Shown: positions 1 through 13,313 of the stretch, in pieces | How the letters are laid out: the number at the start of each line of letters is the position of its first letter | Position numbering within the stretch: the first letter of the stretch is position 1 | Translations under genes and position numbers: made by a program | Notes under the pieces: generated by a model | What the model was told of the DNA's origin: nothing | The model's database searches: none | Seen by the model: the letters and a program-made list of their open reading frames with translations, nothing else | DNA from: a virus | Taxonomy: Duplodnaviria; Heunggongvirae; Uroviricota; Caudoviricetes | Virus record (IMG/VR): IMGVR_UViG_2778261459_000008 | Length of the DNA stretch: 16,625 nt | Strand: one strand, 5' to 3'

Positions 1-222
1 GTGGTGATATGGATGACGGATGGCTGGCCGCTGTATGAATCCCGCCTGAAGGGAAAGCTGCACGTAATCAGCAAGCGTTACACTCAGCGCATTGAGCGAC
101 ATAATCTGAATCTGAGACAACATCTGGCAAGGCTGGGACGGAAGTCACTGTCGTTCTCAAAATCGGTGGAGCTGCATGACAAAGTCATCGGGCATTATCT
201 GAACATAAAGCACTATCAATAA
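1..222 (+). CDS. insB: IS1 transposase InsB, C-terminal part (5' end cut by window edge)
   Basis: 73-aa in-frame translation [73 protein letters not shown] with stop at 220-222; recognised as InsB C-terminus. Confidence 0.85.
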
Positions 223-237
223 GTTGGAGTCATTACC
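1..237 (+). mobile_element. IS1 insertion sequence, right-hand portion; the window begins inside the element and its terminal inverted repeat ends at about 237
   Basis: The 1-222 translation ends ...[10 protein letters not shown], which I recognise as the InsB C-terminus. It is followed by CAATAAGTTGGAGTCATTACC, matching the IS1 terminal inverted repeat as I recall it. Left boundary is outside the window. Confidence 0.85.
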
Positions 238-570
238 AGAAAAATACAGTTCGCTATCCTACAAATTATCATTCGTCGATGTAAGGAATAGTTATGAATA
301 CAGGCATCTCAAGGCACATAAACACAAAAAAAGATTAATATTCTACTGTTTTATTTTGACGCGGGTTGAAAGAGGCAGAATTAAAACCTCGTAAATTGAA
401 ATATATATTGATGTAGTGAATGTATCTTAGGTAAATAATATATATTATTTATTTAACGATTTATAGCAACTCAATATTAGCCTCTCGTATAAATACACAT
501 TAGGTGATAGATTAACCTTCGCTATTTTCTCACTCTGTGTCGAATATATTTATTTCCTGAATAATTAATC

Positions 571-1235: not shown

Positions 1236-1415
1236 TCACATTCTGTCCTGAAAATTCAGTTCGTCACAGTTAACCAGTTTTAGTGGATTAACTGAGTTCA
1301 TATTGCGGCATTTGTCTGTTTCTGTTGCCAGCAGTTCAATCCACTGCATCAGTAAAGTATCAAACAGAAAAACGAAGACAGCGAAAACGACGAGCCACCA
1401 ATACTTGCGAATCAT
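1236..1415 (-). CDS. yhdU: small membrane protein YhdU (DUF2556-like)
   Basis: The minus-strand ORF 1236-1442 contains a 59-aa product from the internal Met (MIRKYWWLVVFAVFVFLFDTLLMQWIELL...) with one hydrophobic helix; it sits between envR and yhdJ as in K-12. Start choice (1415 vs 1442) is uncertain. Confidence 0.7.
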   Translation of the reverse strand: MIRKYWWLVVFAVFVFLFDTLLMQWIELLATETDKCRNMNSVNPLKLVNCDELNFQDRM

Positions 1416-1498: not shown

Positions 1499-2383
1499 TT
1501 ACTTTGTAATGAGATCGGGGTCAACTTCGCTTAACCGGCTTCGTTTTGACAGGTTGCCGGTCTTTCTTTTTTTCACTTTCGCCAGTTCTTCCGCAGAGTA
1601 ATGCGACGCGACATCCAGCCGTCGAAGCCCCATTTTGATGTACTCGCTGTTGATCTCAATACCAATGAATTTTCGTCCGCTGGCGATGGCTACGGCACCG
1701 GTAGTAAAGCTACCAGCAAACGGGTCGAGAACGATATCGCCTGGGTTGGAAGAGGCGAGAATAATGCGTTTCAGTAAGGCTTCCGGTTTTTGCGTCGGGT
1801 GGTTTTCATATTCATCCATCAAATAACGCACGCGCGGAAAATCCCAAACGTTACCCGGTACTTTTTGATGATTGTAAGGCTGTGGAGGATTTTTGCGATA
1901 ATCGATCAACGCGCGCTGCGATCCGGTTTTGGCTTCTACCAGAATAGCATCACCGTTGAATGTGTAGTTCTTTGCGTCTTTCACCATCATCAGGATGGGT
2001 TCGTACATGGAGCCGTAGTGTTTTTTCGCCTGCACTCCAGAACTGTCATATGACCAGACGATGCGACTTTTGATGGTAAAAAGCTTGCGGCACTGGAGAT
2101 CGATAAAGGGCATGTTTTCCGTACTGTTCATGATGTACATGCTGCCCTGCTTTTTCAGAACGCGGTGGCACTCTGCAATCACTTCAAACAGCCAGTCGAT
2201 AAACAGATCTTCTTTCCAGGCTTCGATCAGACCATCAAAATTTTTACCGATGTTATATGGTGGGTCGGCAAAGATCAGATCGACACTTTCGGCGGGGATC
2301 TTTTTAAGTTCGGCAAGCGCATCACCGTGAATAATGGTCTTAGCTTCATTACCAAACCGGGTCGGTTCACATCCTGTTCTCAT
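1499..2383 (-). CDS. yhdJ: N6-adenine DNA methyltransferase YhdJ
   Basis: Minus-strand ORF with DPPY motif (LIFADPPYNIG) and SAM-binding region (VLDPFAGSFTTG). The ATG at 2383 is preceded by GGGAG; the ORF-track start at 2389 is a GTG two codons upstream. Confidence 0.85.
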   Translation of the reverse strand: MRTGCEPTRFGNEAKTIIHGDALAELKKIPAESVDLIFADPPYNIGKNFDGLIEAWKEDLFIDWLFEVIAECHRVLKKQGSMYIMNSTENMPFIDLQCRKLFTIKSRIVWSYDSSGVQAKKHYGSMYEPILMMVKDAKNYTFNGDAILVEAKTGSQRALIDYRKNPPQPYNHQKVPGNVWDFPRVRYLMDEYENHPTQKPEALLKRIILASSNPGDIVLDPFAGSFTTGAVAIASGRKFIGIEINSEYIKMGLRRLDVASHYSAEELAKVKKRKTGNLSKRSRLSEVDPDLITK

Positions 2384-2670: not shown

Positions 2671-3894
2671 ATGGCTGGTGGAACGAACAAATTAAGCGAT
2701 ACATCGCTTCGTAAAATGCTGGGAAGGGAGAGCCCCGGAGACAGCTTCTATGCTGATGGCGATGGGCTAAGTGTGAAGGTGTCCAGATCGGGCGTGTTGA
2801 CTTGGTATTTCACTTTCCGCATAGGTGGCCGGGAATCAACATCTCAGCGTATAAAGCTGGGTAATTATCCAGACCTTTCACTCAAAGCAGCTCGTGAGAA
2901 ACGAGAGCAGTGTCGCGCATGGCTCGCAGAGGGAAAGAATCCAAAGCACCAGTTGAGCGTTACGACTCAGGAAACGTTAAAGCCGGTGACAGTCAGGGAT
3001 GCCCTTGAATACTGGATCAGGGAATATGCCACCCATAACCGCGCTAATGTTGAAAAGCACATTGAGCAGCTCAATAAGCATATCTTTCCTTATATAGGTA
3101 CTTATCCGCTTTCTATGTGTGAAACTCGCCACTGGCTGGAATGTTTCGCCAGGGTAAGGAACGAAGCGCCTGTAGCGGCTGGCTATCTTTTGCAGATGTG
3201 TAAGCAAGCACTCAAGTTCTGCCGGGTTCATCGGTATGCGGTGAGTAACGTCCTGGACGATCTGACCATTGACGATGTTGGACGTAAACAGAATAAGCGG
3301 GACAGGGAGCATACCCGGCAAGAACTTGCTGATATATGGCGAGAATGCTCAGGCCTGAAATTTAAGCCCTACTACTCAGCTCTATTACGTCTGCTGGTGG
3401 TGTTTGGCTGCCGAACTCAGGAGCTGAGATTATCTCGCGTAACCGAATGGGATCTAAATGATTGGGTTTGGACGGTACCTAAAGAGCACAGCAAAGGTGG
3501 TGAGAAAATACTACGGCCTATTCCCGTAGATATTCGCCCATTTATCAAACAGCTTTTAGAGCAGCACCAAAGCACAGGGCTATTGCTGGGAGAGATAAAG
3601 AAACCGGAAGCTGTCAGTCAGTGGGGAAGGATGTTGTATAAGCGTCTGGGCCACTCTGAACCGTGGACGCTTCACGATTTACGCCGTACATTTTCCACGA
3701 CTCTGAACAACATGGGAATTGCTCCGCATGTTGTCGAGCAGCTTCTGGGCCATGCGCTGGGCGGTGTCATGTCCGTATATAACCGCAGTCAGTATTTACC
3801 TGAAAAGCTGGATGCACTGAATAAATGGATGCAGAGATTAGATGTTATTACCTCTGATATCTCAAATGTTACTATTCTTGAGGTCGCAAGATGA
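2671..3894 (+). CDS. int: tyrosine site-specific integrase (P4/CP4-57-like phage integrase family)
   Basis: 407-aa ORF; N-terminal DUF4102-like arm-binding region (GLSVKVSRSGVLTWYFTFRIGGRESTSQRIKLGNYPDLSLKAAREKREQCRAWLAEGKNP); C-terminal catalytic signature (HDLRRTFSTTL ... LGHALGGVMSVYNRSQY); SD GAGG 8 nt upstream of the ATG. Confidence 0.9.
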   Translation: MAGGTNKLSDTSLRKMLGRESPGDSFYADGDGLSVKVSRSGVLTWYFTFRIGGRESTSQRIKLGNYPDLSLKAAREKREQCRAWLAEGKNPKHQLSVTTQETLKPVTVRDALEYWIREYATHNRANVEKHIEQLNKHIFPYIGTYPLSMCETRHWLECFARVRNEAPVAAGYLLQMCKQALKFCRVHRYAVSNVLDDLTIDDVGRKQNKRDREHTRQELADIWRECSGLKFKPYYSALLRLLVVFGCRTQELRLSRVTEWDLNDWVWTVPKEHSKGGEKILRPIPVDIRPFIKQLLEQHQSTGLLLGEIKKPEAVSQWGRMLYKRLGHSEPWTLHDLRRTFSTTLNNMGIAPHVVEQLLGHALGGVMSVYNRSQYLPEKLDALNKWMQRLDVITSDISNVTILEVAR

Positions 3895-5904: not shown

Positions 5905-5992
5905 TATCACGTCTGGCATAGAAAAGACAACGCCCCAAACTGTTGGAGCAGTATTGGGGCGTCTAACCAAACCGTTAGTTGAGGTAACAGTT

Positions 5993-6205: not shown

Positions 6206-6383
6206 ATTAACCAATAAAAGTGCGTCAATAGCCTGTGAACTGGCTGCGTTGTTGATGGTTGTCGAAGAGTGCGACGTTGATCAGGTTGAGCGTGAAAACC
6301 TTATCAGTCTGGCCAGACGAGTATCGGATCAACTGGCGGCAAGCATGGTCGAGCAGAATTCAACGGGGGGGCTCAATGGATAA
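6198..6383 (+). CDS. hypothetical small protein, 61 aa, paralogue of the next gene
   Basis: ATG at 6198 with GGAGG 6 nt upstream; overlaps upstream stop and downstream start. Confidence 0.5.
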   Translation: MRELTNKSASIACELAALLMVVEECDVDQVERENLISLARRVSDQLAASMVEQNSTGGLNG

Positions 6384-12098: not shown

Positions 12099-13313
12099 AT
12101 GTGGTGGCCTTTTAGTCGTAAAAAAAGCGAGCAGCGTAACCTGTCCATTGATGATTTTCTGGCGCTGTCCGGCGTACCGAATACCGGATCCGGAGAATAT
12201 GTTTCTGCCGGGACGGCTGAATCATTGCCTGCAGTGATGAACGCGGTTTCTGTCATCGCTGAGGCGGTGGCCACGATGCCGTGTTATCTGTATCTGGTAC
12301 GTAATGACAAGGGCAGGGAGGCGCGGGAATGGCTGGACAGTCACCCGGTAGATATTCTGCTGAATGAGCAGCCTAATTCGTGCCAGACACCTTACCAGTT
12401 TAAACGCACAATGATGCGTCACTGCCTGCTGAACGGTAACGCCTATGCGGTTATTGAGTGGGGGCGGGACGGGCAGCCCAAATCACTTCATCCTTATGCA
12501 CCGGGTTGTGTTGTACCGGAACGCACAGGCGCACACAAATACCGATATACCATCACCGAACCCTATACAGGAACGGTGCGCACGTATTTACAGGAAGAAG
12601 TTCTGCATCTCCGCTATGCCTCGGATGATGGCTTTCTGGGGCGCTCCCCCGTCACGATTTGCCGTGAGGCACTTGGGCTTGGCCTTGCTCAACAGCGCCA
12701 CGGAGCCAGCATTATGAAAGATGGCATGATGGCGGCAGGGATTATCACGTCAGGCGAATGGCTGGACGGCGTGAAAGGTAAACAGGCATTAGATGCTCTG
12801 GAACGCTACAAGGGGGCGAAAAATGCCGGAAAAACGCCAATCCTTGAAGGGGGCATGGATTACAAGCAACTGGGAATGAGTAACCAGGATGCGGAATGGC
12901 TGGCCTCCCGTCGCTTCTCCATTGAAGACATCGCCCGCATGTTCAACGTATCGCCTATTTTTCTGCAGGAATACAGCAACAGCACCTACAGCAATTTCAG
13001 CGAGGCAAGCCGCGCGTTTCTGACCATGACAATGCGCCCATGGCTGGCGAACTTCGAACAGCAAATCAAGGCCGCTTTGCTGGTGGCTTCTCCCGTACCT
13101 GGTACCCGTTATCTGGTTGAGTTTGATTCAGCCGATTTATTACGCGCCACACCCACCGAACGTTATGCCACGTATGAGAAAGGGATTAAGAACGGGATCA
13201 TGAATCCGAACGAAGCCCGTGAGCGTGAGGGTATGCCGCCGCGTGAAGGTGGTGACGAGTTCAGCCAGGCATGGAAGCAGACTGTGGAAATTAAAGGTGA
13301 AAAAGATGAGTGA
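12099..13313 (+). CDS. portal protein (HK97 family)
   Basis: 404 aa from the ATG at 12099 (2 nt after the protease stop); conserved portal block RRFSIEDIARMFNVSPIFL; the ORF track's upstream extension to 12009 overlaps the protease gene and is unlikely. Confidence 0.85.
   Translation: MWWPFSRKKSEQRNLSIDDFLALSGVPNTGSGEYVSAGTAESLPAVMNAVSVIAEAVATMPCYLYLVRNDKGREAREWLDSHPVDILLNEQPNSCQTPYQFKRTMMRHCLLNGNAYAVIEWGRDGQPKSLHPYAPGCVVPERTGAHKYRYTITEPYTGTVRTYLQEEVLHLRYASDDGFLGRSPVTICREALGLGLAQQRHGASIMKDGMMAAGIITSGEWLDGVKGKQALDALERYKGAKNAGKTPILEGGMDYKQLGMSNQDAEWLASRRFSIEDIARMFNVSPIFLQEYSNSTYSNFSEASRAFLTMTMRPWLANFEQQIKAALLVASPVPGTRYLVEFDSADLLRATPTERYATYEKGIKNGIMNPNEAREREGMPPREGGDEFSQAWKQTVEIKGEKDE

Follow-up and report, generated by a model that had tools for sequence, protein, structure and literature searches.

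The DNA analysed here, a stretch of 16,625 nucleotides that we refer to as the window, opens inside an IS1 element whose right end abuts the spacer between the divergent genes acrS (envR) and acrE, on the acrE side of that spacer. The boundary between IS1 and the spacer is a real sequence junction, and chance resemblance is excluded. The reading that we favor, although we hold it at somewhat less than an even chance, is a simple insertion that uncouples the efflux operon acrEF from its promoter and leaves it silent. The features of the window, together with IS1 insertions near the same genes in other complete genomes, are collected in Table 1.

Table 1. Features of the window (positions from its first letter) and IS1 insertions at the same locus in other genomes (positions relative to the named gene).
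Feature	Location	Strand	Basis or remark
IS1 3′ terminal 237 nt	1..237	+	IS1 positions 532-768; translation, PF03400, comparison with full IS1 copies
77-mer identical to common IS1A/IS1B copies	1..77		first isoform-specific base is 78
IS1 right inverted repeat (IRR), ATCAATAAGTTGGAGTCATTACC	215..237	+	letter match to full 768-bp copies
Outward -35-like TTGGAG inside the IRR	224-229	+	base reading
acrS-proximal 333 bp of the acrS-acrE spacer	238..570		100% identical to K-12; 28.8% G+C
Predicted 9-bp target-site duplication, AGAAAAATA	238..246		acrE -66 to -74; one flank visible; analogy with related insertions
TACAGT, 15 nt after the outward TTGGAG	245-250	+	poor arrangement
Candidate native acrE core promoter, CTTACA-18-TAGGAT	256..285	-	promoter scoring and published mutation positions
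Promoter-like TTAAAA-17-TATATT facing acrS	381..409	+	consensus match only; no more sites than in shuffled sequence
acrS (envR), TetR-family repressor, 220 aa	571..1233	+	intact; DNA identical to K-12
yhdU	1236-1415		as annotated in K-12
yhdJ	1499-2383		as annotated in K-12
Phage-satellite-like island between yhdJ and fis	2488-16625		gene annotation
Island integrase	2671-3894
IS1 in J2	33 bp upstream of acrE ATG		simple insertion, duplication, acrE intact
IS1 in H2 (same span: OZ547461)	46 bp upstream of acrE ATG		simple insertion, duplication, acrE intact
IS1 in XJ55	63 bp upstream of acrE ATG		simple insertion, duplication AACTCGCAG, acrE intact
IS1 in AR436 (same span: AR_0374)	137 bp upstream of acrE ATG		simple insertion, duplication, acrE intact
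IS1 in RM9088	246 bp upstream of acrE ATG		simple insertion, duplication, acrE intact
IS1 in AVS0247, GD33, 13KWH46	at ATG or within acrE		simple insertions
IS1 in E29	joins yhdX to acrE interior		deletion
IS1 in P276M	acrE 5′ end lost		degenerate IS1
IS1 in 300081	inside acrS	opposite orientation	240-bp deletion
IS1 in Ec1120	inside acrE	opposite orientation
IS1 in 2017.11.01CC (same span: PSS-10)	29-38 bp upstream of acrS	opposite orientation

The assignment to IS1 draws on both protein and DNA. A stop-free frame at positions 1-222 translates into the C-terminal 73 aa of InsB, and PF03400 (DDE_Tnp_IS1) is on record in the database for an identical 73-aa product; the frame thus belongs to InsB, with only the C-terminal part of the protein visible. 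The sequence-only reading had placed the end of an IS1 inverted repeat at 237, and the letters agree, as the IRR is the same as in the 768-bp IS1 copies of XJ55 and eight other genomes, with the right end of the element reading ...AAGTTGGAGTCATTACC. Transcription of insAB runs from left to right, towards acrS, and insAB and acrS therefore lie on one strand. As the window opens only at position 532 of IS1, the left inverted repeat, insA and the far flank are beyond it.

The IS1 of the window is an uncommon, divergent isoform. Its 237-nt tail departs from IS1B at 12 positions, each of them within 78-210, and 12-13 nt differences separate it from IS1A/IS1B copies. Among 5,426 complete E. coli genomes there was no 100% DNA match to this tail; the closest match reached 99.6%, and several such best matches are located on plasmids. 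The identical 73-aa InsB product led no further than Shigella dysenteriae and genomes like it, in which the IS1 copies are fragmented. These Shigella-type copies differ from the window tail at 13-14 of 237 nt and still encode the identical 73 aa, so the nucleotide differences of the isoform are synonymous. The IS1 elements found in natural spacer insertions (J2, H2, XJ55 and others) are of a different isoform from that in the window and mismatch it at 12-13 of the final 237 nt.

The distribution of these mismatches also bears on how the window came to start where it does. Assemblers of the de Bruijn type run at k=77 stop after exactly 77 shared repeat bases, which is the length over which the window matches the common IS1 copies. 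The start of the window is thus probably a k=77 short-read assembly break at a contig edge, with the left flank placed on another contig. If such a break is real, the isoform tail would be single-copy in the source genome, which would also hold other IS1 types.

The junction can be placed exactly on the K-12 map. Within the K-12 locus (L001), acrE reads on the minus strand from an ATG at 5935 and the ATG of acrS is at 6334, so that the spacer measures 398 bp, in good agreement with the figure of roughly 400 bp from which the sequence-only reading had started. A direct comparison of positions 238-2487 with K-12 MG1655 revealed no mismatch, and the stretch 238-1300 shows 100% identity to K-12 MG1655 and many other strains. 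Window position 238 corresponds to L001 position 6001, or acrE position -66, which leaves 65 bp between IS1 and the acrE ATG. The distance to acrS is 571-237-1 = 333 bp, just as had been proposed from the sequence along with a start of envR at 571. The further proposal that IS1 lies on the acrE-proximal side of the spacer, that is, on the side of the acrEF promoter, is likewise upheld, because the alignment of 238-570 to the K-12 spacer puts the insertion at -66/-74.

Target duplications of IS1 are 8 or 9 bp long (PMC12428005). If the duplication were 9 bp, the second copy of AGAAAAATA would lie past the IS1 left end, outside the window, and acrE would retain 74 bp of native upstream DNA. The predicted left junction of a simple insertion would have the IS1 left end joined to ...CGCAGAAAGAAAAATA and then acrE; put differently, ...TTAACTCGCAGAAAGAAAAATA would meet the GGTGATG... 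of the left end on the acrE side. Exact searches for this predicted junction, in which an 8- or 9-bp duplication and variants of the left end were allowed, gave no match in the collections searched, and a 42-mer spanning the right junction had no match in a one-genome-per-species collection or in metagenome contigs. The junction in one piece is also absent from the 5,426 complete E. coli genomes, and relative to these genomes the insertion point is new, although the event is of a known kind. The exact integrase protein of the neighboring island occurs in 10 places, and the acrE-acrS spacer is intact in all 10. An exact-protein look-up found no window proteins that are unique to this strain.

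The known events of this kind are instructive about what may be present on the far side of IS1. Twelve of the 5,426 complete genomes carry a same-orientation IS1 near acrS, and in ten of these the element is a simple insertion flanked by an 8- or 9-bp duplication. Seven of the ten retain an intact acrE and represent five sites, located 33, 46, 63, 137 and 246 bp from the ATG (Table 1), with the XJ55 site only 11 bp from that of the window. A mirror-image query for the opposite orientation recovered only four genomes. Since most IS1 events at the locus are simple insertions, acrE is quite likely to be found on the far side of IS1 in the source genome as well, by analogy with these relatives.

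Alternatively, the IS1 end could mark the breakpoint of a rearrangement, such as an IS1-mediated deletion of adjoining DNA, an inversion between two copies of IS1 or the insertion of a larger segment with IS1 at its ends, in which case acrEF would be lost, truncated or relocated. The locus does undergo such events: IS1 is linked to the loss of acrE sequence in E29, PD7 and P276M, the IS1 inside acrS of 300081 is accompanied by a deletion, and the window itself stops inside IS1. PD7 has the same neighboring island as the window, and its IS1 joins yhdV to the island interior with acrEF, acrS, yhdU, yhdJ and the island integrase gene all gone. However, the prevalence of simple insertions with target duplications among the same-orientation genomes argues against a breakpoint, as does the junction itself, in which the boundary base falls cleanly within the spacer, with nothing disturbed towards acrS. 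E29 and PD7 resemble the window in that an IS1 end abuts the same chromosomal neighborhood in the same orientation, but in these two cases the sequence beyond IS1 can be seen to be unrelated and there is no target duplication, whereas the far flank of the window is outside the sequence. We regard a rearrangement as improbable, with perhaps one chance in five.

If the insertion is a simple one, its consequences for acrEF may depend on where the native promoter lies. In acrB-deletion evolution, mutations in the acrS/acrE spacer included IS1 at -138, IS2 at -86/-90 with duplication of GTAGG, IS5 at -94 and -163, and the single-nucleotide changes T>G at -92 and G>A at -86 (PMC9783932); insertions of IS1 and IS2 at -90 and -187 are attributed to Kobayashi et al. 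as cited in the same paper, the supplements of which do not list acrS/acrE mutations. Base mapping shows that K-12 has G at -86, T at -92 and GTAGG at -90..-86, which matches the published numbering. The activating changes cluster from -86 to -94, on or beside the candidate promoter CTTACA-18-TAGGAT, whose hexamers are at 280-285 (acrE -113..-108) and 256-261 (acrE -89..-84); the change of G to A at -86 would convert TAGGAT to TAGAAT. A second possible -10, GATAAT, is present at -98..-93. A weak core promoter for acrEF thus probably occupies about -113 to -84, and transcription would begin near -77, a placement that was made by consensus scoring and published mutation positions rather than from a mapped transcription start.

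Relative to this candidate promoter, the IS1 of the window and the IS1 selected in the laboratory are on opposite sides. The selected element at -138 is upstream, and the promoter would stay attached to acrE, whereas the window element at -66/-74 is downstream, and acrE would be separated from the promoter. No hybrid promoter that could serve as a replacement is predicted at the other end of the element. At 16-18 nt from the outward TTGGCA of the left end, the bases are TTTCTG, TTCTGC and TCTGCG, none of which is a -10, and promoter scoring found no good promoter in the 74 bp that acrE would retain. The same scoring did detect a weak outward element, CATACA-17-(TG)CAGCAT/CATCAT, at the left tip of IS1. 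Consensus promoter scans of the acrE strand in the window, K-12 and XJ55 yielded nothing above the expectation from shuffled sequences. Among other signals sought in the same DNA, a palindrome resembling the AcrR operator was rejected as a chance-level match (405 of 500 shuffles matched equally), the inverted repeats of the spacer were AT-rich low-complexity pairs only, and an Rfam scan of the window gave no match.

These observations suggest the following series of events, which constitutes the reading that we favor. IS1 would have transposed into the AT-rich acrS-acrE spacer with its right end to acrS and its left end to acrE, presumably as a simple insertion with an intact acrE beyond the left end. 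Lying just downstream of the weak core promoter (-10 at -89..-84), it would cut acrEF off both from this promoter and from the AT-rich DNA further upstream, which H-NS reportedly silences. The displaced native promoter (256-285, minus strand) would now fire into the IS1 right end, and its transcripts could reach acrE only by reading through 768 bp of IS1; IS1 insertions are generally strongly polar. Neither the left end together with the 74 bp nor the 74 bp alone would seem to be a credible sigma-70 promoter. With the native promoter displaced and no credible new one in its place, acrEF would most likely be silent, or more silent than before. The insertion would then have struck a preferred IS1 target with a neutral or nearly neutral outcome and would not be a classic activating allele.

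The classic outcome nevertheless deserves careful consideration. It has been reported that wild-type K-12 hardly expresses acrEF and that H-NS represses the operon (PMC4462101), that activated acrEF complements the loss of AcrAB (PMC4462101, PMC6599122), and that IS1, IS2 and IS5 inserted in the spacer upstream of acrE are repeatedly selected in acrB-defective strains, where they activate AcrEF by raising acrEF expression (PMC9783932, PMC4462101, PMC6599122). The literature thus agrees with the sequence-only reading that insertions upstream of acrEF are a route to activation. An IS1 upstream of an intact acrEF could act through transcription that leaves its left end, through the removal of the AT-rich DNA, reportedly bound by H-NS, and the acrS-side control DNA to a distance of 768 bp, or through both, and extra efflux would be expected mainly if AcrAB is impaired. 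The inverted repeats of IS1 do contain an outward -35, although a strong hybrid promoter results only with a correctly spaced -10 (PMC8764528), and the weak TG-extended, -10-like element at the left end is also in favor of such transcription. However, activating mutations cluster at an element that lies upstream of the site, and the -35 of the left end has no correctly spaced -10. The probable native -10 is on the wrong side of IS1, and the TG-extended element is the one weak signal that the left end offers. We consider activation to be unlikely, at slightly more than one chance in four.

The orientation of natural insertions bears on whether the left end of IS1 might be useful to acrE. In all six acrE-proximal spacer insertions (the five sites noted above and the window), the left end faces acrE, a bias with a two-sided p of ~0.03. 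This uniformity runs counter to a silent acrEF and hints at selection for something that the left end supplies. However, insertions inside acrE show a similar tendency, three of them sharing this orientation and one having the opposite, and because these are disruptive, the bias may reflect something other than activation. The acrF gene is annotated as a pseudogene in two of the IS1 carriers, XJ55 (internal stop) and P276M (frameshift), and selection for a working AcrEF is thus hard to reconcile with these strains. The IS1 site shared by AR436 and AR_0374, 137 bp from the ATG, is apparently the same as the laboratory-selected site at -138 (PMC9783932), and by this analogy acrEF may be genuinely activated in these two strains.

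A more general proposal is that E. coli in nature harbors a distinct class of insertions in the acrE leader, at 33, 46, 63 and 74 bp from the ATG, in which the left end faces acrE and supplies a position-independent outward promoter (CATACA-17-TGn-CAGCAT/CATCAT) that replaces the native promoter silenced by H-NS. We view this proposal as speculative and improbable. If it were true, IS1 would serve as a portable acrEF promoter in the wild, beyond the selections made with acrB mutants in the laboratory.

The frequency of these insertions can be accounted for without invoking selection. The IS1 tail occurs at no fewer than 58,587 chromosomal places in the 5,426 genomes, and with chromosomes taken as ~5 Mb, at least about 4.7 genomes should have an IS1 in any given 398 bp. 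The observed number is nine, some of which are clonal pairs, and occupancy of the acrS-acrE spacer is therefore close to the genome-wide expectation with no strong enrichment, which is a further point against activation. IS1 has been described as preferring AT-rich targets (Zerbib et al. 1985, as cited in PMC9330008). Given this preference, and given that an insertion in the leader of a silent operon would be free of cost, the occupancy needs no selection. With IS1 downstream of the probable promoter, no workable -10 at the left end and occupancy near expectation, the activation that the sequence-only reading implied for the present site is unsupported.

Several reports are close precedents for one or another part of this arrangement. 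For E. coli and Salmonella strains defective in acrB, activation of acrEF by IS elements is said to have been described by Kobayashi et al. 2001, Jellen-Ritter & Kern 2001 and Olliver et al. 2005, and IS1 hybrid (fusion) promoters reportedly by Prentki et al. 1986. The laboratory alleles have in common with the window the element itself, the acrS-acrE spacer and the acrE-proximal side; beyond the difference in position with respect to the probable promoter, they were recovered by selection in acrB mutants, whereas the window case is known from sequence alone. The natural insertions in J2, H2, XJ55, AR436/AR_0374 and RM9088 share with the window the left end facing acrE and a location in the 33-246 bp stretch, but differ in insertion point and isoform. 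Known hybrid promoters and the window both have an outward -35-like hexamer in the terminal repeat beside target DNA. In the window, however, the predicted acrE-side junction is without a correctly spaced -10, and the acrS side offers only TACAGT at a spacing of 15 nt. The importance of this spacing is illustrated by IS1 upstream of afaA, osmB and ugd, where expression goes up, goes down or is unchanged according to the spacing of the -10 (PMC8764528). In the case of afaA in ST131, IS1 is co-directional with the gene that it activates (PMC8764528), and the corresponding gene in the window would be acrS.

The acrS gene is full length, identical to its K-12 counterpart and divergent from acrE, and the 220-aa product carries PF00440 and PF08361 (TetR_N and TetR_C_2) on record in relatives. 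It is conceivable that the main effect of the insertion is on this gene, with IS1 transcription and a weak hybrid promoter at the right end raising the level of the repressor and slightly lowering expression of acrAB and acrEF. The co-directionality of insAB and acrS would permit this, as would the right-end TTGGAG followed after 15 nt by TACAGT, and AcrS has been reported as a repressor of acrAB (Hirakawa 2008, by way of PMC7771234 and PMC4462101). However, the 15-nt spacing is poor, the site failed the consensus scan, acrS is a large distance away, and the native 333-bp upstream region is kept along with its promoter-like site (381-409), which is untouched by the insertion. We consider such an effect very improbable; with its entire upstream region in place, acrS should be little affected.

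Downstream of yhdJ, the window continues into an island that resembles a phage satellite. In addition to the integrase it encodes DUF6387, AlpA, an Icd-like protein, a RepA-type helicase and DUF3775, as well as a head and packaging set that comprises the major capsid protein, prohead protease, portal, head-tail connector, HNH nuclease, and small and large terminase subunits. There are no tail genes annotated between 2488 and 16625, and we take the gene content to be similar to that of capsid-forming phage-inducible chromosomal islands. E. coli HZ13, a near relative that lacks the IS1, differs by 3 SNPs in 16,388 nt. On either side of the island is a direct repeat whose exact shared core is 47 bp and which reaches roughly 100 bp by eye, at ~2400-2487 of the window and ~23100-23188 of HZ13. 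This repeat takes in the terminator region of fis together with the final 19 nt of the gene; the island is thus inserted at the fis 3′ end, which its integrase targets and which the island rebuilds. Various internal deletions in four relatives of the island (L006, L011, L012 and L013) have removed capsid, packaging or replication genes, and the island appears from these sequences to be decaying in several lineages. At position 13278, within the portal gene, the window has C where HZ13 has T. The HZ13 portal protein is annotated as 393 aa compared to 404 aa in relatives, and from these two observations the window probably carries the intact portal allele.

Whichever outcome applies to acrEF, an IS element upstream of this operon cannot be read as activating until the side on which it lies relative to the core promoter has been checked. 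One point that deserves pursuit is that natural insertions in the acrE leader all share one orientation. If acrE is intact and driven by IS1, the insertion would be a chromosomal efflux-upregulation allele, of a type that is missed by resistance-gene catalogues and that lies exactly where short-read assemblies break. If IS1 instead insulates acrEF from its promoter, the outcome to which its position points, the strain would be without its backup pump for AcrAB, which would matter for strategies that rely on efflux inhibitors.
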